NCBI GenBank assembly: GCA_965214095.1
Contig: OZ243938.1
Span: forward strand, 2,336,001 to 2,400,000
DNA length: 64,000 nt
Source of the DNA: Candidatus Poribacteria bacterium
Lineage (GTDB): Bacteria; Poribacteria; WGA-4E; WGA-3G
Reading direction: 5' to 3'
Positions 14,762 through 25,683 of the stretch are shown here, piece after piece. The notes below the pieces were generated by a model. That model saw nothing but the letters and a program-made list of their open reading frames with translations, was not told the origin of the DNA and did not search any database. Each line of letters begins with the position of its first letter. Position 1 is the stretch's first letter. The translations under genes were made by a program, and so were the position numbers.

Positions 14762-14864
14762 TATGGTGAAGCATAAAATTATATCTACTCTTTCTATCAA
14801 CGGTAGGCGAGGTTTCCTGACCTCACCTCAGTAATTTGTAGAATCAATTCAATAATTTACCATA
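14762..14864. mobile_element. Diverged MITE-E copy (103 bp, TA-flanked) with GTAGGCGAGGTTTCCTGACCTCACC hairpin
   Basis: Same length and architecture as 17435-17537 and 40743-40845. Confidence 0.6.
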
Positions 14865-15008
14865 GTTTTAGGGTTTTTGTTGAGTCTTTTTCACAAATGC
14901 TAAATTCCCCAAGCCGGTAGGTGCGGTTTCCTAACCGCACCGGATTTGTGCTAGACACCTTTCATAATAGGTCTTCTCACAGGTTTCGGTGCGGTTAGGA
15001 AACCGCAC

Positions 15009-16496
15009 CATAAGCGTCAATTTAGTGATTTTTTGCTGCATTTTCAAGGTGTTCTAATGTTGTGTCTCTATTAGCACGTCTCTCAATGTAGCACCCATTT
15101 TGGAAAGCGTGTTTTATTTCATCAAAAGTTTGCCGAAAAGACATTATAGACTTGCGGAAACCTATTGCAAGTGTGCGTGCGAAGGTGCTAATAAGTTCTG
15201 CTGTTTTTGTTAGACTATGTTTTAGACATCGCCAACCGACCCTTAACATGATCCAGTGCCGCATAATTGCGACGATGAGTTTTGCATATAACTCACATAA
15301 GATTCTATATGGCTTGTCGCTACGGGAGGTATCAACTTTTCCAATGCTTTTGAAGCACTTGAACATCAACTCAACCTGCCATCGGATGCGTGCGACAGCA
15401 CAAATCTGTTCAGCAGTCAGATGGTCTACTTTTATATTAGTAATGTAGATATTCCATCTTGCGAGCTGAAGTCGTTTGGGTGAAGGTTTCGTATACTTCC
15501 GCTTTGCACGATGTTTTATCTCCTTAATACGCTGTTGGGTTTCTGTTTCTGAAAGTCTTTGAACAACTAATCGTGCTTTGAGACGCTTGTTTTTACCTAT
15601 AAAGATTTGTTTGTCCTTGAAGTTATTAGAACCCTTCTTGAGCCATTTTAGCAAGCAAAAAGGGGCACCTGTTTCATCATAGAGAAAACACTGGACTTTG
15701 TAGCGTGATATCCAAAAGACGTTTGCATCGGAAAGTCTTTTGAAGGTATCAAGTGAATAATAGCCGAGGTCTGCGAGGCGCAAACTGCCGGCGGGTAGCA
15801 TGTCAATCTGCTTTTCAATAGCACTATCAGCGGTGATACCATTGGTCAGTTCAAAGTGTTCAAAAGTGCCTGTGGCACTATCAAAACGCAGGTGGAGTTT
15901 CACGGCAGCTGTGTTCGGTTTATTCTTTTTGCTTCCACCTTCCCAAGTTTCGTGGAGCACATCAGGGAGTGTAATCCAAGAACTATCTTGTAAATAGACA
16001 CCAGTGAACTTTTCAAGGAGCGGAAGCGTTTGCGGGTCGGCAGAAATAACCTTGGACGCAGTAGCATCAAGGATAACTTTCAGGGTCTCTGCTGCTTCAG
16101 ATGTAAATCGTTGTTCAATGGCTTGTCGTGAGATTGAAATCCCCAGCACACCAGCGGTTTGCGCAAGTTGTGTATAGGTGGCATCTGGGTTTTCTAACCA
16201 AGTCCAAATGAGTATTTGAGCAAAACGACTACCGTTGAGTTTACAACTTCTTTTGACAAAACCTGTATTGAGAGCTGCATCATTGGCTATAGTTGTAAGA
16301 ATATGTTGCATTTCTTTGGGAACTTGTGATAATGTATTCATTAGGAAACACCTCTTTGTAGACCATAATAAATCTATATCTACATTATATATGAGGTGTT
16401 TTCATTTTTACAGAAGTTTTATTTCATAATTTATACTTCCTCTGATTAAAAGTTGACACTTATCGGTCTTGGTGCATCCTTAAATTGACGCCTATG
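15009..16496 (-). mobile_element. IS4-family insertion sequence, copy 1 (1488 bp), inserted in a REP hairpin with a 20-bp target duplication
   Basis: TIRs CATAAGCGTCAATTTA / TAAATTGACGCCTATG; GTGCGGTTAGGAAACCGCAC at both 14989-15008 and 16497-16516. Confidence 0.93.
15022..16341 (-). CDS. IS4-family DDE transposase
   Basis: 'LQDSS', 'LADLGYY', 'RWQVELMFK'; the stop codon lies in the TIR. Confidence 0.93.
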   Translation of the reverse strand: MNTLSQVPKEMQHILTTIANDAALNTGFVKRSCKLNGSRFAQILIWTWLENPDATYTQLAQTAGVLGISISRQAIEQRFTSEAAETLKVILDATASKVISADPQTLPLLEKFTGVYLQDSSWITLPDVLHETWEGGSKKNKPNTAAVKLHLRFDSATGTFEHFELTNGITADSAIEKQIDMLPAGSLRLADLGYYSLDTFKRLSDANVFWISRYKVQCFLYDETGAPFCLLKWLKKGSNNFKDKQIFIGKNKRLKARLVVQRLSETETQQRIKEIKHRAKRKYTKPSPKRLQLARWNIYITNIKVDHLTAEQICAVARIRWQVELMFKCFKSIGKVDTSRSDKPYRILCELYAKLIVAIMRHWIMLRVGWRCLKHSLTKTAELISTFARTLAIGFRKSIMSFRQTFDEIKHAFQNGCYIERRANRDTTLEHLENAAKNH

Positions 16497-16656
16497 GTGC
16501 GGTTAGGAAACCGCACCTACCGGTGAGAGTTGAGCCATAATGTTTGATGAAACCATCGTAAAAGCCTATCTTAGACATAACCGATATCATTAAAAACTTT
16601 TATCCTGATAATTATATAATTCTATAAATCCTTGGGCAGACTACAGTAGCACAATA

Positions 16657-17289
16657 CTACTCAGATTTTCGTTCCAAACTCAATTTCTGACCATTAGTAG
16701 AGAGCCTTAACTCATCTCCTTCAAGGCTCCAGGTATACTCAGTACCCGCCTTAAACAGCGCACCGGTAGCAGTCGGAGCAAAACCTTTTTGCGTTTCTGC
16801 TGCCAAATCCATTTCAAGCTCTTCTACTGTTTTACCTACAATTTGTTGTTGCCACACCTCTTCCGGTTCAAGTGCCACAACCACATCCACTGACAAATCA
16901 TGTGTCGCAATTGATAGCATGGATTCATCCGCGGTATACGTCCCTTCCGATGATATCGTGATCTCCTGTGTCATTGAAGACTCAGATTCAGGATATTTCT
17001 CTGTCAGAACAAACTCCAACGCCCCTGTGAACGTGTCGTCGGCATTGAAAGTCCAGCTGTTCCCACCGACCATGAATTCCGTTTCGAATTCCGGTTCTGG
17101 GTCCGCAGGCGTAAACAGTTGATCAAACATCAGACCATTCACTGTTGCAACCTGCCAAGTTGAATCAACGAAATCTGGAGTAATTACCATTTGATCATCT
17201 TTATCATCATCATCTTCACCGCAACCAATCAAAGAAATAATAAGCAAAGCAGTGAAGCATATAATCGTAAACCTAAAAATAGGTTTCAT
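16657..17289 (-). CDS. Acidic lipoprotein, lipocalin-like beta-rich hypothetical
   Basis: Lipobox LIGC followed by an Asp run; 'STWQV', 'GTYTA', 'YTWSLEGDELRL'. Confidence 0.75.
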   Translation of the reverse strand: MKPIFRFTIICFTALLIISLIGCGEDDDDKDDQMVITPDFVDSTWQVATVNGLMFDQLFTPADPEPEFETEFMVGGNSWTFNADDTFTGALEFVLTEKYPESESSMTQEITISSEGTYTADESMLSIATHDLSVDVVVALEPEEVWQQQIVGKTVEELEMDLAAETQKGFAPTATGALFKAGTEYTWSLEGDELRLSTNGQKLSLERKSE

Positions 17290-17434
17290 AACAAAAACCT
17301 TCCTTTTTTACAATTGTGGTATTGTCTCATGTCAGCAAATCGTATGAAACAATATTCATTTACCTACGTGAATTATCTCTTTTCCTAAGAGTAATCGTTT
17401 TCAGGTAACGTGTATGCATCGATTTGTGTTTACA

Positions 17435-17537
17435 TATAGTGAATTATAAATATAAGTTGACACTTTCACCCTATGGTAGGCGAGGTTTCCTAACCTCGCC
17501 GATGCAGAGTGTTCAAGTAATTTCAAAATCTACTATA
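17435..17537. mobile_element. MITE-E (103 bp including flanking TA) with GTAGGCGAGGTTTCCTAACCTCGCC hairpin
   Basis: Near-identical copy at 40743-40845. Confidence 0.8.
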
Positions 17538-17701
17538 TATCAGTATTTCTGAATAGACCTATGTAATAGACCTTCGTGTTATAAAATCCTACCTACCATT
17601 GAAGGTAAATGAATAATCTAAATATATAATTATTGCATTCTTCACCTTAGTTTTTAGTATAATGTCCAGAGTTATTCAATCCTATACCCTTTCAAAAATT
17701 G

Positions 17702-17728
17702 TGCAACAATTTCTCTTAAACTCGCGTC
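17702..17728 (+). promoter_or_regulatory. Candidate ECF-type (autoregulatory) promoter
   Basis: TGCAAC-N17-CGTC about 45 bp upstream of the sigma gene; AAC/CGT is the common ECF consensus. Confidence 0.45.
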
Positions 17729-17771
17729 ATTATATACAAGTGAATTCAGAAACGTTTTACGGAGGCATCCG

Positions 17772-19505
17772 ATGAAAAATGATGATGTTAAGTTGATCCA
17801 ACGCATTCTCGCGGGTGATCAAACTGCTTTTGAGAGTTTGCTTACAAAATATCGGAAGCAGGTCCACGCGCACGCATGGCGGCGGACAGGTGATTTTCAT
17901 ATCGCTGAAGACATTACACAGGAGACTTTCCTGCAAGTTTATCAGAAACTGGAAACTCTTGAAGAACCAACTCAGTTTTCAAGATGGCTCCATGCGATTG
18001 TGAATCGTCTCTGTATTGCGTGGTATCGGAAAAACCATATACACACTGAATCATTTGAAGAAACCGACTACTCAGAGATTGAGATTGATGCATATTCTCG
18101 CTATGTTGCAGCAGAACAGGTGAAAACAACTGCTATAGTGCAAAGTGATGTTGTGCAGGAACTTCTCACTAAGTTAAAGGAAAACGACAGACAAGTTGTC
18201 ACGCTATACTACTTTAAAGAAATGACATATTCTGAGATAGGTTCCTATTTAGGTGTATCAGAAAGTACGATTAAGAGTCGGTTGCACCGTGCTCGCAAAC
18301 GTCTGCAAAAGTATGAGTTCATGATACAAGAAGCGTTAGACATAACAATGGAAGAGGGACATCACTCCCACAGAAAAATAAATGGAGGTATTGGAATGAA
18401 TTTGACATTTGAAAGAGACGACCTTTTATATTCGCTACAAGTGCTGCAGGATATTGGGAATGGAGAGGATACTTCTCCGATTCTCTCAAATATATTTATC
18501 CACGCAGCTGGTGATACTATTGAGTGTATGGCAACAGACACTGAAATCGGTATCAGAATGAAGGTAGAAGGGACAGTTAGAGAAGAAGGGAGAATTGTTG
18601 TTTCTGCCCAGAAGTTAGCAGACATTGTTAATGGGTGGCAATCGGAGAAACCGATAAACTTAATTACGACAGCAACAGATCGCATTGAAATCAGTGGTGG
18701 AAATGGCGTTCACAAAAACGTCAAGATATCCGATGAAGAGTTTCCCAACCTCCTTGCTGTTGATGATAAAGCGATTGCGATTGATGGGGATAGCCTACGT
18801 TCTGTGCTGGACAAAACTAAATATGCAGTTCCCACAGATGAGGAAAAGATCAAGCGTTTACCAAAAGGTCTATACTTTAACCTATTTAATGACAGAACAG
18901 AAGTTGTCGCGACCGACGGATTACAACTTGCCCTTGCCCACTGTGAACCGTTCAACTTATCTGATGATAGCGATGGATTTATCGTTCCACTCAAAGCTGC
19001 CAAAGAAATCGAACGCACATTTGCGAATTCACCTGAGATAAGGATTGCGCGCATTGAAAATCAGATTCTCTTTGCGGATGAACATGTTACGTTGACGACG
19101 AAATTGATAAATACTGAATACCCACAGTATCAACAAATCTTACAAAGTTCTTATGATGGGAGAGTCGTAATAAAGAAAGAGCCTTTTATGAACGTCGTCC
19201 GTGAAATTGCCATGCTTTCAAATCCGAAATACCCGTCGGTATTTTTAGAAATAGATGAACAGAAGATACGGATTTCGCCTAAACTCTCTGCACCGGATGA
19301 GGAATGTGAGACTGTCGCGGTGGATTCATGTGTTGGGAGTGTCAATATCCGTCTGAATTCTCGGATGCTGACAGAGGCATTAGAGCACATTGAAACGGAG
19401 GCTTTTGCTCTAGAGTTCACAAATGCAGTGCTTCCTGTTGTAGTTAAACCTATGGGAAAGGAAGGACATGTTTGTATTTTTGCTCCAATGCGTTTGGATG
19501 CTTGA
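17772..19505 (+). CDS. dnaN: Fusion of an ECF sigma-70 factor (aa 1-~190) and a DNA polymerase III beta sliding clamp paralogue (aa 209-577)
   Basis: Sigma2 'AEDITQETFL...FSRWL'; sigma4 'MTYSEIGSYLGVSESTIKSRLHRAR'. Clamp motifs 'PILSNI', 'ATDTEI', 'EEFP', 'VATDG', 'EYPQY', 'APMRL'. Not in a dnaA context, so a paralogue. Confidence 0.88.
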   Translation: MKNDDVKLIQRILAGDQTAFESLLTKYRKQVHAHAWRRTGDFHIAEDITQETFLQVYQKLETLEEPTQFSRWLHAIVNRLCIAWYRKNHIHTESFEETDYSEIEIDAYSRYVAAEQVKTTAIVQSDVVQELLTKLKENDRQVVTLYYFKEMTYSEIGSYLGVSESTIKSRLHRARKRLQKYEFMIQEALDITMEEGHHSHRKINGGIGMNLTFERDDLLYSLQVLQDIGNGEDTSPILSNIFIHAAGDTIECMATDTEIGIRMKVEGTVREEGRIVVSAQKLADIVNGWQSEKPINLITTATDRIEISGGNGVHKNVKISDEEFPNLLAVDDKAIAIDGDSLRSVLDKTKYAVPTDEEKIKRLPKGLYFNLFNDRTEVVATDGLQLALAHCEPFNLSDDSDGFIVPLKAAKEIERTFANSPEIRIARIENQILFADEHVTLTTKLINTEYPQYQQILQSSYDGRVVIKKEPFMNVVREIAMLSNPKYPSVFLEIDEQKIRISPKLSAPDEECETVAVDSCVGSVNIRLNSRMLTEALEHIETEAFALEFTNAVLPVVVKPMGKEGHVCIFAPMRLDA

Positions 19506-19850
19506 GTAATAATCTAATCGTATATGCCCTATTTGACAGTTATAGGTTAGTGCTTAGTCAACATTTTATTGTAGTTCGCGATTCGGAGATCGTTCCTACC
19601 GACTGACCATTTATTGTCCGAGGGAACTCCGATTCCCGATTACTCTTATGTCCATCAGTTATAGTAAAAACCATAATTATTTACACACTACGGTAGGTTC
19701 GGTTTCCTAACCGAACCATGGGCGTCAATTTAGTGTAAATTAGGCGTTTTCCCCAGGACGGTAGGTTCGGTTTCCTAACCGAACTGGATCCTATGCGAGA
19801 ACCTCTATGAAGGTATTTGGCACAAAGCCGGTTCGGTTAGGAAACCGAAC

Positions 19851-21338
19851 CATAGGCGTCAATTTAGTGATTTTTTGCTGCATTTTCAAGGTGTTCTAAT
19901 GTTGTGTCTCTATTAGCACGTCTCTCAATGTAGCACCCATTTTGGAAAGCGTGTTTTATTTCATCAAAAGTTTGCCGAAAAGACATTATAGACTTGCGGA
20001 AACCTATTGCAAGTGTGCGTGCGAAGGTGCTAATAAGTTCTGCTGTTTTTGTTAGACTATGTTTTAGACATCGCCAACCGACCCTTAACATGATCCAGTG
20101 CCGCATAATTGCGACGATGAGTTTTGCATATAACTCACATAAGATTCTATATGGCTTGTCGCTACGGGAGGTATCAACTTTTCCAATGCTTTTGAAGCAC
20201 TTGAACATCAACTCAACCTGCCATCGGATGCGTGCGACAGCACAAATCTGTTCAGCAGTCAGATGGTCTACTTTTATATTAGTAATGTAGATATTCCATC
20301 TTGCGAGCTGAAGTCGTTTGGGTGAAGGTTTCGTATACTTCCGCTTTGCACGATGTTTTATCTCCTTAATACGCTGTTGGGTTTCTGTTTCTGAAAGTCT
20401 TTGAACAACTAATCGTGCTTTGAGACGCTTGTTTTTACCTATAAAGATTTGTTTGTCCTTGAAGTTATTAGAACCCTTCTTGAGCCATTTTAGCAAACAA
20501 AAAGGGTCACCTGTTTCATCATAGAGAAAACACTGGACTTTGTAGCGTGATATCCAAAAGACGTTTGCATCGGAAAGTCTTTTGAAGGTATCAAGTGAAT
20601 AATAGCCGAGGTCTGCGAGGCGCAAACTGCCGGCGGGTAGCATGTCAATCTGCTTTTCAATAGCACTATCAGCGGTGATACCATTGGTCAGTTCAAAGTG
20701 TTCAAAAGTGCCTGTGGCACTATCAAAACGCAGGTGGAGTTTCACGGCAGCTGTGTTCGGTTTATTCTTTTTGCTTCCACCTTCCCAAGTTTCGTGGAGC
20801 ACATCAGGGAGTGTAATCCAAGAACTATCTTGTAAATAGACACCAGTGAACTTTTCAAGGAGCGGAAGCGTTTGCGGGTCGGCAGAAATAACCTTGGACG
20901 CAGTAGCATCAAGGATAACTTTCAGGGTCTCTGCTGCTTCAGATGTAAATCGTTGTTCAATGGCTTGTCGTGAGATTGAAATCCCCAGCACACCAGCGGT
21001 TTGCGCAAGTTGTGTATAGGTGGCATCTGGGTTTTCTAACCAAGTCCAAATGAGTATTTGAGCAAAACGACTACCGTTGAGTTTACAACTTCTTTTGACA
21101 AAACCTGTATTGAGAGCTGCATCATTGGCTATAGTTGTAAGAATATGTTGCATTTCTTTGGGAACTTGTGATAATGTATTCATTAGGAAACACCTCTTTG
21201 TAGACCATAATAAATCTATATCTACATTATATATGAGGTGTTTTCATTTTTACAGAAGTTTTATTTCATAATTTATACTTCCTCTGATTAAAAGTTGACA
21301 CTTATCGGTCTTGGTGCATCCTTAAATTGACGCCTATG
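19851..21338 (-). mobile_element. IS4-family insertion sequence, copy 2 (1488 bp), 20-bp TSD
   Basis: TIRs CATAGGCGTCAATTTA / TAAATTGACGCCTATG; GTTCGGTTAGGAAACCGAAC at 19831-19850 and 21339-21358. Confidence 0.93.
19864..21183 (-). CDS. IS4-family DDE transposase (one residue differs from copy 1)
   Basis: ETGDPF vs ETGAPF; otherwise the same translation. Confidence 0.93.
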   Translation of the reverse strand: MNTLSQVPKEMQHILTTIANDAALNTGFVKRSCKLNGSRFAQILIWTWLENPDATYTQLAQTAGVLGISISRQAIEQRFTSEAAETLKVILDATASKVISADPQTLPLLEKFTGVYLQDSSWITLPDVLHETWEGGSKKNKPNTAAVKLHLRFDSATGTFEHFELTNGITADSAIEKQIDMLPAGSLRLADLGYYSLDTFKRLSDANVFWISRYKVQCFLYDETGDPFCLLKWLKKGSNNFKDKQIFIGKNKRLKARLVVQRLSETETQQRIKEIKHRAKRKYTKPSPKRLQLARWNIYITNIKVDHLTAEQICAVARIRWQVELMFKCFKSIGKVDTSRSDKPYRILCELYAKLIVAIMRHWIMLRVGWRCLKHSLTKTAELISTFARTLAIGFRKSIMSFRQTFDEIKHAFQNGCYIERRANRDTTLEHLENAAKNH

Positions 21339-21530
21339 GTTCGGTTAGGAAACCGAACCTACCGGTACTTGGAAGGACGCTAAATTGACGCCTATGGTTC
21401 GATTTCCTAACCGAACCGGTGTTTGTTCAGTCTCATAGATGCGGTTAGGAAACCGCATCTACCGAGGAGTACACGTGTTTTTACATTTCACCATAACGCT
21501 TGACTAAGCACTATCGCGTAAGTCTTGTTC

Positions 21531-23519
21531 CTACCAAGTATATGCTATTTTTGTGAACAGTTGGTTCACAGTCTCATCTGCATCTTGGTCTCCGTAGACG
21601 AGATATAGCACGATGTCTTCCAAGAACATATACTTAAAGACAGCATTTAGGTTCGGTTTATGATCTCCTCCTGAACGCAATCGGAATGTAATCCACTTTT
21701 CTCTGCCAATCTCAAAGTTTGCACTTGATCGCAGTGAAAACTTATAGGTATTTTCTCCATCAGGAAAAGTCTGCCACAGATTCTCTCCTTCAATTCCTAT
21801 GGATAGAAATTTGAAAGGAATTAGATTCATCGCGGTTGTTACAAACGTTGCTGTAGCACCTTCAAATTCACCATATTGACAGACGACAAAGATGCGATCT
21901 GGATTTTGTCGGTTGTATACTGCCTGCGCTGCAACAACCCAGTTATTGTAAACATCATACGACCAATTTCTAACAAAAAACCCGGTCTGATATTTTTCAC
22001 CTAAATCGAATTCCATCAGTTGAAAATGGTCTCCACGTATCCTTTCACCTTCATGATTCCAAGTGAGATTTTGGACAGATTCAAATTTGATCGTCTGCAA
22101 TACACCTTTATTTAAGTGCCAACGATATACACCCCAAAAACTTGGTTGTCTTATGTCCGTGAGCCGGACTAATCCGTTGATAGGTTTGAATCCATCCGAT
22201 ATATCTCTATATGCAAGACTGAAAATCGGATTCCCTCTACGATTGATTTCAGCTAAGATTGCACGCCGATCCGTTGCGTCTGGTTCCCAGTTTCCTGCAT
22301 AATTTGCTATAAAATTGAAATCTTTTGGCAGACGAATTCTCGTATCAACCGATGCTGAACGGTTATATGACTCGCTTACTTCTTTTGATGCAAAAAACAA
22401 TCCAACTGATGAGGAATTCCCCGCATCCCATAACCCGCGTGCCAAGATGTTATGACTGTCATCTTCGGTCTCTTGAACATGCATAAGTCCGTAAGTTGCT
22501 CTCCCTGTCTTTCCGATGAGTTTAGCACCGTAGTCTATCTCACCAATACGACGACTGTAAAATAGAGATATGGGTGCTCTAAAAATTCGTCCATCCTCTT
22601 GGAAGAAAGGTCTACGGTCTGTCAATCGCTGCTCAAGATCGGATAAAACGATACCTTGAACTTCAGATTCAATATGACTGAAATCTGGATTTAATGTGCC
22701 AATGATAGACGTGCTTGTGGTTATTCGGTAAGTACCATCTACACCTATTGCTGGCGTTAATTTGTCTGCTAAGGCTTCAGAATTTGATGTGTTATCATAT
22801 CTTGCTGATAAATATCCACCAAGTTCAATCTGCTTTCCAATATTCTTTAGATCAAGTTCAATGTTCGTCAGGGTGCCGAATCGATTTGCATCAGAGACGT
22901 TGACACCCGTATCAGCCCAAGTGCTTGTGCGATCCAAACTTTGATGTCGACGCACGATATTTAGTCCCCATGTCTGCTTTGCTACGCGTGGTAGATCAAG
23001 GATTTGATATGGAATTTTCATCTCTACTATCCAAGCAGTATCTGTTATCGATGCTGCAGCTGTCCATTCTCCATCCCATCCGAGGTCACCTTGTTTTTCA
23101 TCCAGTTGCGTGCCAAGCGGGTTAACAGCAAATCCGTAAGTCCGTTGTTTATCATGGTATGTGTCAAGATAGATTGCGACATGATCTTCAAATTTGAAAC
23201 TTCCATCTCTTCGTGTCTGATTAGCAATCATTGTTGACTTGTCTTGAAAACAGCGAAAACCGACATAAAGTGCTACATCATCATGGACAATGTAGACTTG
23301 AGTTTGATCTGGCACTGTCGTTTTCAATTCTGCAACCAAGAATCTTTCAATTGGTGTTGCTTGTTGCCATGCACTTTCTTCCAATTTCCCATCTATTAGT
23401 AGTTTTGCTTCAACTTTTTGCCATGCTATCGTTTGAGAATATGCATTTTTATGCATAAGAAAAAAACAACAGATAGTACAGTAAAATAGTAATATCCATT
23501 TGTCAGCTAAATTTATCAT
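21531..23519 (-). CDS. CBM9-like / DUF5916 outer-membrane protein
   Basis: 'IDGKLEESAW', 'YLDTYHD...FAVNPLGTQLD', 'LNPDFSHIE', 'RRPFFQE', 'LFYSRRIG'; C-terminal aromatic 'KIAYTW'. Confidence 0.8.
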   Translation of the reverse strand: MINLADKWILLFYCTICCFFLMHKNAYSQTIAWQKVEAKLLIDGKLEESAWQQATPIERFLVAELKTTVPDQTQVYIVHDDVALYVGFRCFQDKSTMIANQTRRDGSFKFEDHVAIYLDTYHDKQRTYGFAVNPLGTQLDEKQGDLGWDGEWTAAASITDTAWIVEMKIPYQILDLPRVAKQTWGLNIVRRHQSLDRTSTWADTGVNVSDANRFGTLTNIELDLKNIGKQIELGGYLSARYDNTSNSEALADKLTPAIGVDGTYRITTSTSIIGTLNPDFSHIESEVQGIVLSDLEQRLTDRRPFFQEDGRIFRAPISLFYSRRIGEIDYGAKLIGKTGRATYGLMHVQETEDDSHNILARGLWDAGNSSSVGLFFASKEVSESYNRSASVDTRIRLPKDFNFIANYAGNWEPDATDRRAILAEINRRGNPIFSLAYRDISDGFKPINGLVRLTDIRQPSFWGVYRWHLNKGVLQTIKFESVQNLTWNHEGERIRGDHFQLMEFDLGEKYQTGFFVRNWSYDVYNNWVVAAQAVYNRQNPDRIFVVCQYGEFEGATATFVTTAMNLIPFKFLSIGIEGENLWQTFPDGENTYKFSLRSSANFEIGREKWITFRLRSGGDHKPNLNAVFKYMFLEDIVLYLVYGDQDADETVNQLFTKIAYTW

Positions 23520-23583
23520 TTTTTTCCTCTGATATATTTGTAAAAAAAAAATGGCACAAAACATAAAATATGGAGAAAGGGAA

Positions 23584-24200: not shown

Positions 24201-25574
24201 TTAAAACGTACTATCGCGAGTGGTAATCGGACACCAACGAGATGAATGGAGATAACGCACCAACACATCTTTTGCAGCCGAAGTGCCGATACGGTAAAGC
24301 GCATGCGCCGCATTACCACGGATATAACGGTTGTCATCAAAAAGCAGATTTTCCAAACCTTCAACAGCATCCGCAGCATGCTCCCCGATTCGACATAACG
24401 CAAACACCGCATTACGTCTAACACCATCATTTTGGGATTCTAATGCCTCTATCAATTTCGGCACCGCTAATGAACCTGATTGACTCGTCGTACCTAACGC
24501 CTCAATCGCACGCACACGGACATTGGCAGATTCATCCTCTAACGACTCAACCAAATCAGGAACAGCTGGTTCCGCCTTCGTTCCAAGGTCTCCGAGTGCT
24601 TCTGCAGCATTCGCACGAACGCCTTCAGGGGCATCTTTCAATGCATTACGTAGCACATCAACAGCAGGTGAACCCATTGCGTTCAACGCATAACACGCAT
24701 TACGACGCGTCATATCCGATTCTTCATAAAGACACCTTACCAACGGACGAACCGCTTCTTCTCCAAACTTCGGTACTTGATAGGCAGCCCGCAATCCAAC
24801 GGATTCAGTCTCACCATTCATCGCACTTATCAAACCTGACAACGTTTCACCATTAGGAGAAGCCGATGTATCAGCACCCTTTGAACCGAGGTGCCAGTTC
24901 CAAAGATGCTCAAACATGTCCTGATGTTCCGCAGGTCCAAGTGCTGTTCCGTTTGACCATGATGTTTCCTTATTTGCCCACGTCGGTTCCTGCGGTTCAA
25001 CCATTCGCGCATAGAGAAACTTCATCATATAACGTCTCTCTTCAGTCTGGTTCGGCATTGCGCGATGCCATAGATCATAATTCGCGAATACCACGGAACC
25101 CGCTTTCCCAGTAATAGGATATTCGGGAGATATTTGCGAACCTTCATTCGTGCTGAAATAATGACTTATTGGAACAACGCCAGTCGGCCCTCGTTCCACA
25201 GGTGTATCTTGTGGGTAATAGAAAACAAGCATCCGACGTGTATGATGTGACCACCTTTTGCCACCATCTTGATGCATTCCCTGTCCATTACTACCGGGCG
25301 GATTGTAATGCGGATGCCGATGTGGTTGCATGTAGTAATCCGGTCCCAATAAACTTGTCAATGCACCTTTCACGTTAGCATCGTCAAAGACTCTCTGAAT
25401 TTCTGGTATTCTCGGTAAAAGATTGTTACCCGGATTGCCCTCTTTATCAAACACTGCTGCTGTTCTTTGAAAAACGTCTTCATGAAATGCAGCGGGCAAA
25501 TCTGTATTCACAGTAACAAATCCGTTTACGATAAATTCACGCATCTGTGCGTCTGTTAAAAGGTTTTCTGCCAT
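24201..25574 (-). CDS. PhyH-family Fe/2OG dioxygenase fused to HEAT repeats
   Basis: HQD...LWH facial triad; C-terminal repeats 'VRANAAEALGDLG', 'VRVRAIEALG'; GGAGG RBS before MAENL. Confidence 0.88.
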   Translation of the reverse strand: MAENLLTDAQMREFIVNGFVTVNTDLPAAFHEDVFQRTAAVFDKEGNPGNNLLPRIPEIQRVFDDANVKGALTSLLGPDYYMQPHRHPHYNPPGSNGQGMHQDGGKRWSHHTRRMLVFYYPQDTPVERGPTGVVPISHYFSTNEGSQISPEYPITGKAGSVVFANYDLWHRAMPNQTEERRYMMKFLYARMVEPQEPTWANKETSWSNGTALGPAEHQDMFEHLWNWHLGSKGADTSASPNGETLSGLISAMNGETESVGLRAAYQVPKFGEEAVRPLVRCLYEESDMTRRNACYALNAMGSPAVDVLRNALKDAPEGVRANAAEALGDLGTKAEPAVPDLVESLEDESANVRVRAIEALGTTSQSGSLAVPKLIEALESQNDGVRRNAVFALCRIGEHAADAVEGLENLLFDDNRYIRGNAAHALYRIGTSAAKDVLVRYLHSSRWCPITTRDSTF

Positions 25575-25683
25575 TTTCATTTCCTCCAAAGGATATTGTG
25601 TGTCACTGACTAAACCTAAATTTGAATTAGTATGTCATTAATTTGCACGTTTTACAACAAAAAATGTTCATGCTTAAATAAAT

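Follow-up and report, generated by a model that had tools for sequence, protein, structure and literature searches.

A sigma factor joined to a complete beta sliding clamp in one family of Poribacteria

What might a bacterium do with a transcription initiation factor that carries a whole sliding clamp on the same polypeptide chain? The question is raised by a gene in a stretch of 64,000 nucleotides (hereafter the window; assembly GCA_965214095.1, contig OZ243938.1, positions 2,336,001 to 2,400,000) from Candidatus Poribacteria, an uncultured sponge symbiont. At window positions 17772-19505 (+), a single open reading frame (ORF) of 577 amino acids with zero internal stops joins an extracytoplasmic function (ECF) sigma factor to a full DnaN-like beta clamp, and we call its product sigma-DnaN. 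A literature search found no paper describing sigma-clamp, sigma-FtsZ or DnaN-FtsZ fusions. Judged from the sequences compared below, sigma-DnaN is part of a wider, undescribed pattern in which regulators are fused to DnaN- or FtsZ-derived modules within one Poribacteria family. We lean towards reading it as a functional, autoregulated one-component ECF sigma factor whose regulatory C-terminal extension would be a repurposed whole beta-clamp paralogue, working via clamp-type protein contacts.

The domain order reported by a first-pass annotation of this DNA, namely sigma regions 2 and 4, a linker and a DnaN-like region beginning at Met209 of one 577-residue ORF, is borne out by ORF reading, Pfam and NCBIfam, and the gene itself is further supported by its database relatives and by a genome search. 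Translation is predicted to start at the ATG at 17772-17774, preceded by a Shine-Dalgarno (SD) sequence, GGAGG, at 17761-17765, and this start column is ATG or GTG in 20/20 orthologous loci. Sigma region 2 (residues 23-88; 17838-18035) matches PF04542 (Sigma70_r2, E 4e-14), and sigma region 4 (residues 127-180; 18150-18311) matches both PF08281 (Sigma70_r4_2, residues 127-178, E 3e-18) and PF04545; the sigma half also matches PF07638. A conserved linker of 28 residues without a hydrophobic segment (residues 181-208; 18312-18395) leads into clamp domain I (residues 209-327; 18396-18752; PF00712), which carries Glu232 at the position equivalent to Arg24. Domain II follows (residues 337-452; 18780-19127; PF02767), with ATDGLQL at residues 380-386, and then domain III (residues 460-574; 19149-19493; PF02768), the least conserved part of the protein with a mean column identity of 0.70. 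All of these features lie on the plus strand, and all sigma and DNA_pol3_beta Pfam matches exceed their cut-offs.

Family profiles agree with this division. The N-terminal part scores 105.6 bits against TIGR02937 (sigma70-ECF, cut-off 42.9), and residues 209-575 score 181.4 bits against TIGR00663 (dnaN, cut-off 137.65), compared with 282.7 and 274.1 bits for the two free dnaN genes of the same genome. The sigma half has sigma2 and sigma4 only and matches the ECF profile, as expected of an ECF factor; the 397 amino acids that follow sigma4 exceed the 50 that define ECFs with C-terminal extensions; and the clamp half spans the three domains of DnaN over their full length. The protein has no transmembrane segment, and the fused module is cytoplasmic. 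An AlphaFold2 model of the full fusion, built from a 108-row family alignment and used only for approximate helix boundaries, gave a mean pLDDT of 64.2 and a pTM of 0.38; pLDDT fell below 50 in the linker and at residues 91-150, and the relative placement of the domains was not confident. Prediction of a complex between the clamp (209-577) and the sigma factor with its linker (1-208), again from family alignments, returned a score of 0.01 (mark 0.32) and is evidence neither way. A scan of 17300-19900 for sigma70-type promoters and terminators yielded nothing above shuffled expectation, and no internal promoter before the clamp half.

Is the fusion real? That it is an assembly or sequencing artefact, or a recent and decaying fusion unique to this genome, is hardly credible, even though two insertion sequence (IS) copies flank the gene here and the copies of some relatives are broken (by one TAG in G044 and by a frameshift in G099). 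Among the best 120 of 2434 database relatives, all have sigma and clamp Pfam domains (59-100% identity, 529-595 amino acids), and more than 100 protein clusters carrying the fusion derive from independent assemblies. The closest named genome is a Candidatus Poribacteria metagenome-assembled genome, at 91% identity. Across 151 Poribacteria genomes, in which we designate the window's genus g1 (its own genome included) and the sister genus g2, intact full-length sigma-DnaN is present in 43, all from these two genera of family f1 (6/38 in g1 and 37/57 in g2, four genomes having two copies). Related genomes, to which the first-pass annotation had pointed, thus hold the same architecture. No intact copy was found in 5 genomes of genera g3-g5 or in 51 genomes of eight other families, and shorter forms that match only residues 1-269 to 1-504 also occur.

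A protein library of 1.84 billion representatives at 50% identity gives a similar picture among its best 150 matches. One representative is a full-length fusion (P0122). Two further forms are a 458-residue protein comprising the sigma factor, clamp domain I and most of domain II (11 members) and a 469-residue protein comprising a different sigma factor and clamp domains II and III (5 members). All named members of these fusion forms are Candidatus Poribacteria, and the remaining matches comprise the sigma part alone or the clamp part alone. Moreover, the gene is covered by contigs of public sequencing runs, four of which lie outside the assemblies above and include two RNA libraries. One contig of 2054 nucleotides, derived from a close relative and assembled from a metatranscriptomic library, extends over 17633-19527 at about 94% identity and is free of indels in 17766-19449. 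The RNA-library contigs are a hint of expression and no proof of transcription. The worry that a stop codon at the junction had been lost through error or recent mutation, or that the fusion is unique and decaying, can be set aside: the frame is open in orthologues, the RNA-library contig lacks indels and purifying selection acts on the gene. Database relatives, genome search, ratios of nonsynonymous to synonymous divergence (dN/dS) and public-run contigs together refute the artefact explanation.

From where did the clamp half come? In a tree of 43 clamp sequences (quick IQ-TREE run, LG+G4, no bootstrap), a single clade (SH-aLRT 100) unites the 20 fused clamps with the frameshifted copy of G099 and is nested among the free dnaN paralogues of family f1. 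At the level of sequence, this nesting shows a single origin of the fusion within one Poribacteria family, by way of a dnaN duplicate specific to that family. A single full-length dnaN match was obtained in each of five genomes of other Poribacteria families, with 32-44% identity to the fused clamp. The first-pass annotation was right that this is not the housekeeping dnaN locus, for two further, free dnaN genes stand in tandem at C1:5142298-5144608 (L061:8275-10627) of the same genome. Its expectation of a separate dnaA-linked dnaN holds as regards the separate genes and fails as regards the linkage: dnaA (C1:2619084-2620361) adjoins neither the free dnaN genes nor the fusion, and the genome therefore has no dnaA-linked dnaN.

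Free dnaN genes in tandem pairs that are not beside dnaA are found in many genomes of the family (also L071, L072 and L073 in relatives). In three of the four genomes represented in the tree, the two members of a pair group most closely with one another, which suggests repeated duplication or gene conversion; the pair of the window's genome is the one that the tree does not settle. Two sigma-WD40 genes lie behind the free dnaN pair in the window's genome.

Pairwise Nei-Gojobori estimates from 12 orthologue pairs of the fusion and 12 pairs of free clamps give dN/dS ranges of 0.06-0.16 for the sigma half, 0-0.43 for the linker, 0.18-0.37 for the clamp half and 0.05-0.16 for free clamps; synonymous divergence of the fusion across the two genera is saturated (dS up to 1.1-1.2). 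These ratios show both halves to be maintained by purifying selection, with an estimated constraint on the clamp about three-fold weaker than on free clamps. From the strong selection on the sigma half, we infer that it binds core RNA polymerase and initiates transcription.

If the clamp half is under selection, is it still a clamp? We compared it with 22 free clamps, in which 138 positions are at least 90% conserved; the fused clade retains 74 of these positions at 90% or more and has changed at 28. Residue 232, which aligns with Arg24 of the solved clamp 7rzm, is Arg in 95% of the free clamps, unconserved in the fused clade and Glu in the window protein. Other positions that changed in the fused clade are Arg444, Arg478, Gly318 and the C-terminal Arg574, the last of which is found in 100% of free clamps and is variable among fused ones, whereas Trp289, Gln385 and Asp509 are new residues specific to the clade. 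Changes at Tyr314, Gly318, Pro506 and Gly509 (to Asp) fall in strands that we take, by analogy with E. coli beta, to form the head-to-tail dimer interface. The six predicted ring-lining helices carry a mean of 11.1 lysine and arginine residues in fused clamps versus 13.9 in free ones, with a net charge of +2.7 versus +6.0, and of -2 in the window protein. The clamp half therefore lacks the Arg24-equivalent and part of the basic inner lining of DnaN.

The partner-binding pocket gives a mixed picture. ATDG is kept, H and R are replaced by L and Q in ATDGLQL, and the C-terminal PMRL is kept in the window protein; the region equivalent to RYYLNG is variable and poorly modelled, and the Arg176-equivalent is Gln. 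The first-pass annotation had singled out ATDGLQL as a departure from the conserved clamp motif. The motif does read so at 380-386, but the departure is not specific to the fusion, as the family's free dnaN genes vary there too, with the two copies in this genome reading ATDRNYL and ATDGTRQL. Judged by these residue comparisons, the clamp half looks unlike a clamp that works in replication.

These findings bear directly on the most literal explanation of the fusion, a covalent version of the clamp-activated transcription of phages T4 and Mu. The clamp half would be loaded at forks or nicks and slide along the DNA, tethering the sigma factor or holoenzyme, so that promoter search became one-dimensional and transcription was coupled to replication. 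Phage precedents lend this idea some appeal: T4 gp45 tethers RNA polymerase via gp55 and gp33 (PMC7892883), and MuC of phage Mu needs the host beta clamp for late transcription (PMC12867686). The presence of all three clamp domains, a score above the dnaN family cut-off and dN/dS below 1 are also in its favour. We nevertheless consider it improbable. The Arg24-equivalent is lost, basic residues in the lining are fewer, and changes affect both the interface strands and the C-terminal Arg, which is variable. Stable variants without domain III (458 residues, 11 members) or without domain I (469 residues, 5 members) could not close a canonical ring. The proposal of the first-pass annotation that the protein is loaded on, or tracks along, DNA is disfavoured by the same changes and by the three-fold difference in dN/dS. 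Its other idea, that the protein senses replication state or clamp-binding ligands, may hold.

The junction between the two halves suggests how such a protein could have been assembled. The linker matches the domains in conservation (mean column identity 0.80), with L189 invariant in all 108 aligned proteins and E187, A188, D190, I191 and T192 conserved at 90% or more; its first part, YEFMIQEALD, is common to paralogous sigma-X proteins. We considered QEALDIT as a clamp-binding motif that might dock in the clamp's own pocket, and rejected it as specific evidence, since clamp-less paralogues fused to modules with a transmembrane (TM) segment and WD40 or BNR repeats carry this (Q/R)EAL(D/S) helix after sigma4 as well. 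At the end of the linker, an SD-like GGAGGT (18384-18389) precedes the ATG of Met209 (18396-18398), as noted in the first pass, and could provide a second start that yields a free clamp of 369 amino acids. Met209 is invariant in 108/108 aligned proteins. Codon 205 is GGA in 20/20 orthologous loci, the following codon is GGN or GAT, and the ATG lies six bases past that second codon in each of the 20 (GGAGG-N7-ATG in the window); in genus g2, GGAGAT is the SD of the N-terminal start too. Gly205 is the sole single-codon column among 10 invariant Gly columns, against a background of 181 GGA in 530 Gly codons, although this bias is suggestive only because 21/144 invariant columns are also single-codon and the loci are related. 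A short free-clamp isoform made from this internal SD-ATG is plausible, and the conservation of its SD-like GGAG and ATG at the nucleotide level in 20/20 loci keeps the idea of two isoforms alive.

The same pattern recurs in other fusions. In sigma-FtsZ genes, the FtsZ part begins with a Met that is invariant in 13/13 and lies 5-8 nucleotides beyond a purine run resembling an SD. A cytoplasmic subgroup of the paralogous sigma factors has the common linker '...QEALDITIE.EH.SQ..L.G.I.M', and after the junction Met stands a whole protein, be it DnaN, an HTH_20 regulator or a PD40/S9 peptidase. As read from these junctions, the pattern fits the capture of whole genes at their ribosome-binding site, possibly with production of a free short isoform.

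Might the separate products be the ones that matter? The locus could be likened to an ordinary two-gene operon with a lost stop codon, in which the fused protein is a tolerated by-product and the functional products are a separate sigma factor and a free clamp made from the internal SD-ATG. The conserved internal GGAG and ATG, and the like pattern in sigma-FtsZ, accord with this explanation, which we nonetheless judge quite improbable. Over two genera and synonymous divergence of up to 1.1-1.2, the frame has stayed open through a linker whose dN/dS is 0-0.43 and whose conservation equals that of the domains. Furthermore, every clamp of the fused clade is fused or is a frameshifted fusion, and no sigma gene was found within about 3 kb upstream of the closest free clamp in the 8 fusion-less genomes examined (L062-L069).

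If sigma-DnaN functions as a sigma factor, which genes does it control? An ECF-type promoter-like site lies ahead of the gene (17703-17728, +), with a -35 element GCAAC at 17703-17707, a 15-nucleotide spacer and a -10 element CGCGTC at 17723-17728, followed by ATTATA. This predicted site matches the ECF autoregulation type (AAC in the -35 element, CGT in the -10 element), and GCAAC-N15-CGCGTC recurs upstream of orthologues in both genera at differing distances from the start. The promoter proposed in the first pass is thus found to be conserved, but the coordinates given for the observation began at 17702, which belongs to this site, and the ORF begins at 17772. From this conserved site, sigma-DnaN is probably autoregulated.

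A wider motif, GCA[AC][AC]-N15-16-CGCGTC, was counted in 19 related loci totalling 338 kb, with 'upstream' meaning within 300 nucleotides. It has 30 matches, 23 of them intergenic, and lies upstream of 12/19 sigma-DnaN genes, 5/7 ATP-binding cassette (ABC) exporter genes, 3/12 MacB/FtsX genes, 2/3 sigma-HTH genes and only 1/115 unclassified genes. Within these loci it precedes 0/12 sigma-FtsZ genes and no ABC-2, ABC_tran, CBM9/DUF5916, DUF5694 or PhyH gene. In g2, sigma-DnaN stands within a conserved co-directional cluster of ABC exporter, MacB/FtsX and ABC-2 permease genes. The strict motif in the window's genome has ten matches versus about 2.6 expected from a rough calculation; six are upstream of other sigma-X genes and one is sigma-DnaN's own, and the remaining three (771502, 941344 and 2501786) were rejected as targets, as they look intragenic or due to chance. 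An extended -10 search of this genome again returned sigma-X genes only. A transporter regulon is thus proposed for the sister genus alone, because the window's genome shows only the gene's own site and those of sigma-X genes. No anti-sigma Pfam domain was seen among the scanned neighbours, which were not all of the neighbours, in the window and the 19 related loci.

Sigma-DnaN stands among many other sigma-X genes. The window's genome has about 55 ECF-type sigma matches, of which about 38 are in ORFs of 780-1100 amino acids with WD40 or BNR/Sortilin-type propellers; 15 of the sigma-propeller genes form one tandem array (C1:3228977-3285826). Most sigma-propeller proteins have a hydrophobic segment after sigma4 and are therefore predicted to be membrane-anchored, and many sigma genes of the expansion are preceded by GCA(A/C)C-N15-16-CGCGTC promoters. 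By these sequence relationships, the sigma factor of sigma-DnaN is shown to belong to a large lineage-specific expansion of ECFs with fused C-terminal modules. Its sigma core is 51% identical to that of three tandem ECF sigma-X proteins of 564-566 amino acids (G000:C1:1876722-1882917, minus strand; L043-L045), whose C-terminal part of about 380 residues has no Pfam match. Next to the three genes are CBM9/DUF5916 and DUF5694 genes that have homologues in the g2 cluster.

FtsZ has been recruited in the same way. A sigma-FtsZ protein of 585 amino acids with a Tubulin GTPase domain and FtsZ_C is encoded elsewhere in the window's genome (G000:C1:4552364-4554121, +; L046), and g2 genomes have a form of about 405 amino acids (L029:13093-14322, +, and 11 other g2 loci) whose gene belongs to the same transporter cluster as sigma-DnaN, about 3.3 kb downstream of it. 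Full-length sigma-FtsZ matches were found in 87/101 genomes of the family (33/39 in g1, 51/54 in g2, 0/3 in g5 and 0/2 in g3), with ORFs of about 400, about 600 or 1360-1744 amino acids. Genus g5, which has neither sigma-DnaN nor sigma-FtsZ, instead encodes DnaN-FtsZ proteins of 701-710 amino acids in which both partners are full (L087:8866-10986, minus strand, in G079; also L082 in G108 and L083 in G152). They are present in 3/3 g5 genomes and have 18 members in a cluster at 90% identity. The DnaN part likewise lacks the Arg24-equivalent and has insertions at the domain-I interface strand. Directly downstream of DnaN-FtsZ are genes for a sensor-less sigma54 activator (L087:7113-8189) and a CBM9/DUF5916 protein (L087:5104-7116). 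Two more kinds of cytoplasmic fusion keep the same linker and junction Met as sigma-DnaN, one to an HTH_20/MarR-like domain (407-513 amino acids) and the other to PD40/DPPIV_N/Peptidase_S9 (636-936 amino acids); examples of these fusions are L037:10870-12093 and L037:14316-15857, both +, and the proteins P0127, P0142 and P0153.

This company of fused toxin targets and transporters raises a further explanation, that the clamp half is a decoy that mimics a target. It would serve as bait for agents that attack the real clamp, such as natural-product antibiotics or proteins of phages or competitors, and their binding would free or activate the sigma factor to express efflux or defence genes; the neighbouring sigma-FtsZ would do likewise for agents directed at FtsZ. 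BlaR1 is a precedent for such target-like sensors. Another is PbpP with sigmaP (PMC8092216). In g2, sigma-DnaN and sigma-FtsZ are clustered with ABC exporters, MacB/FtsX permeases and ABC-2 permeases, the sigma-DnaN promoter motif stands ahead of ABC exporter and MacB genes, and DnaN and FtsZ paralogues have repeatedly been recruited to transcription regulators, as in DnaN-FtsZ beside the sigma54 activator. However, good bait should resemble the target, and here the canonical partner pocket looks degraded rather than preserved: the RYYLNG-equivalent region is variable, the Arg176-equivalent is Gln and the C-terminal Arg varies. Nor were defence-system genes identified in the cluster by Pfam (PADLOC was not run). 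We regard the decoy explanation as unlikely.

A broader version of this thought, which we hold to be unlikely, takes in the DnaN and FtsZ fusions together. One Poribacteria family would have wired copies of two cell-cycle machines, which are also toxin targets, into transcription factors as decoys or sensors, with sigma-DnaN, sigma-FtsZ and DnaN-FtsZ beside the sensor-less sigma54 activator as its cases. An agent or cell state that engages the clamp-like or FtsZ-like bait would switch on the attached regulator and thereby envelope ABC transporters. Where the sigma cassette ends, a conserved SD-ATG lying in frame would act as a 'docking joint' that captures whole genes as sensors and at the same time yields a free short isoform.

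We return to the one-component sigma factor as the reading that we prefer. Its clamp module would no longer be a DNA-encircling processivity clamp, and would instead gate or localise the sigma factor through clamp-type protein contacts. Candidate contacts are self-dimerisation, pairing with a short clamp isoform produced from the internal SD-ATG, and the binding of a partner or ligand. Active sigma-DnaN would then drive transcription of the fusion gene itself and also, in the sister genus if not more widely, of envelope ABC transporters.

Several points weigh against this proposal. It is built on sequence, the host being uncultured. The fusion is patchy in occurrence, with intact copies in 6 of 38 g1 genomes and others broken or truncated. 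In the window's genome, clear sites of the promoter are found only at its own gene and at other sigma-X genes, and paralogous sigmas have near-identical promoters, such that cross-reading of sites is possible. The charge count of the ring lining uses helix limits from a model with pLDDT 64, and the roles given to the Arg24 DNA contact, the partner pocket and the interface residues are presumed from work on E. coli beta. Finally, the PMRL and ATDG core is kept in the window protein and dN/dS is well below 1, on which account some clamp-type activity, including DNA loading, may persist. Considered as a whole, the observation made in the first pass is confirmed and its interpretation is partly supported by these comparisons.

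The surroundings of the gene in this genome bear the marks of mobile DNA. IS copy 1 lies to its left (14987-16522, minus strand; DDE_Tnp_1 transposase ORF 15022-16341) and IS copy 2 to its right in the same orientation (19829-21364, minus strand; transposase ORF 19864-21183). The two copies of about 1.54 kb, each encoding a transposase of 439 amino acids, are 99% identical over the 300 nucleotides compared. They bracket sigma-DnaN and a lipoprotein-like ORF of 210 amino acids (16657-17289, minus strand) in the manner of a composite transposon. In the nearest relatives (L004 and L042) the left flank is the same but the IS copies are missing, and the right flank differs. A palindromic repeat, GGT(G/T)CGGTTTCCTAACCG(C/A)ACC with its complement, is found at the IS ends and between genes (14791-14945, 17464-17504, 19681-19789 and 21323-21469), and looks like a REP- or MITE-type element. 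Directly to the right of IS copy 2 is the gene for a CBM9/DUF5916 protein (21531-23564, minus strand), of the same family as in the g2 and g5 clusters, followed by one for a PhyH-like protein with HEAT repeats (24201-25589, minus strand).

How does sigma-DnaN compare with systems that are already known? Membrane-anchored ECFs fused to WD40 or other propellers occur in Planctomycetes-type genomes ('ECF01-Gob'). The window protein's sigma core is 47-61% identical to a large set of sigma-TM-WD40/BNR proteins, of which its genome holds about 38; unlike them, sigma-DnaN lacks a transmembrane segment and carries a cytoplasmic module. Extra dnaN copies are known as self-resistance genes or duplicated targets, for instance in griselimycin resistance. 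Here, too, a divergent dnaN paralogue exists in addition to the housekeeping copies, but it forms part of a sigma-factor fusion, and a biosynthetic cluster was not identified.

Among sigma factors, ECFs with fused extensions play the part of 'one-component systems', and the extensions known so far are small sensor folds. The ECF classification of Casas-Pastor et al. 2021 (PMC7826278) describes 19 groups with C-terminal extensions of other kinds, among them SnoaL-like domains (ECF41, ECF56, ECF294 and ECF295), TPR (ECF42) and Cys-rich segments (ECF238); its main text, supplements aside, has 0 mentions of DnaN, sliding clamp, polymerase III, FtsZ, tubulin or Poribacteria. As in the extended ECFs described there, sigma-DnaN has sigma2 and sigma4 only, an extension of more than 50 residues directly after sigma4, an ECF-type autoregulatory promoter and no anti-sigma gene seen among the neighbours scanned, and related sigma cores carry related extensions. 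It differs from those described in that its extension is an entire three-domain beta clamp beginning at its own Met1, with an SD-like sequence kept. A whole beta clamp is thus an unprecedented extension within a known class, and would be a built-in regulatory domain of an undescribed kind. Elsewhere in the same genomes, whole FtsZ, an HTH regulator and an S9 peptidase take its place, and in each case the junction coincides exactly with the start codon of the fused protein. These junctions suggest that regulators may gain sensor domains by a simple route, the in-frame capture of a gene at its ribosome-binding site.

Phage systems offer the nearest functional likeness. T4 late transcription uses the clamp gp45, the sigma-like gp55 and the co-activator gp33, and in both T4 and sigma-DnaN a sigma-family protein is physically coupled to a sliding-clamp fold. 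The T4 coupling (PMC7892883) is non-covalent, via clamp-binding motifs, and the clamp is the working, trimeric replication clamp that encircles DNA. In sigma-DnaN the link is covalent, the clamp is a divergent DnaN paralogue without the Arg24-equivalent and the host is a cell. The Mor/C-family protein MuC likewise links a bacterial beta-type clamp to transcription initiation, using the host clamp for the late transcription of phage Mu (PMC12867686); it binds the housekeeping clamp via QL[SD]LF-like motifs and works with sigma70, and its authors suggest a wider principle. Sigma-DnaN, by contrast, has no clear clamp-binding motif of the QL[SD]LF type that would recruit a DNA-loaded replication clamp, the QEALD of its linker being common to clamp-less paralogues, and its link to the clamp is covalent. 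If its clamp module does regulate the sigma factor, it would represent a new input logic for transcription, tied to the replication and division machinery or to the agents that target it, and would give cells their own version of clamp-dependent transcription, which so far is known only in the phages T4 and Mu.

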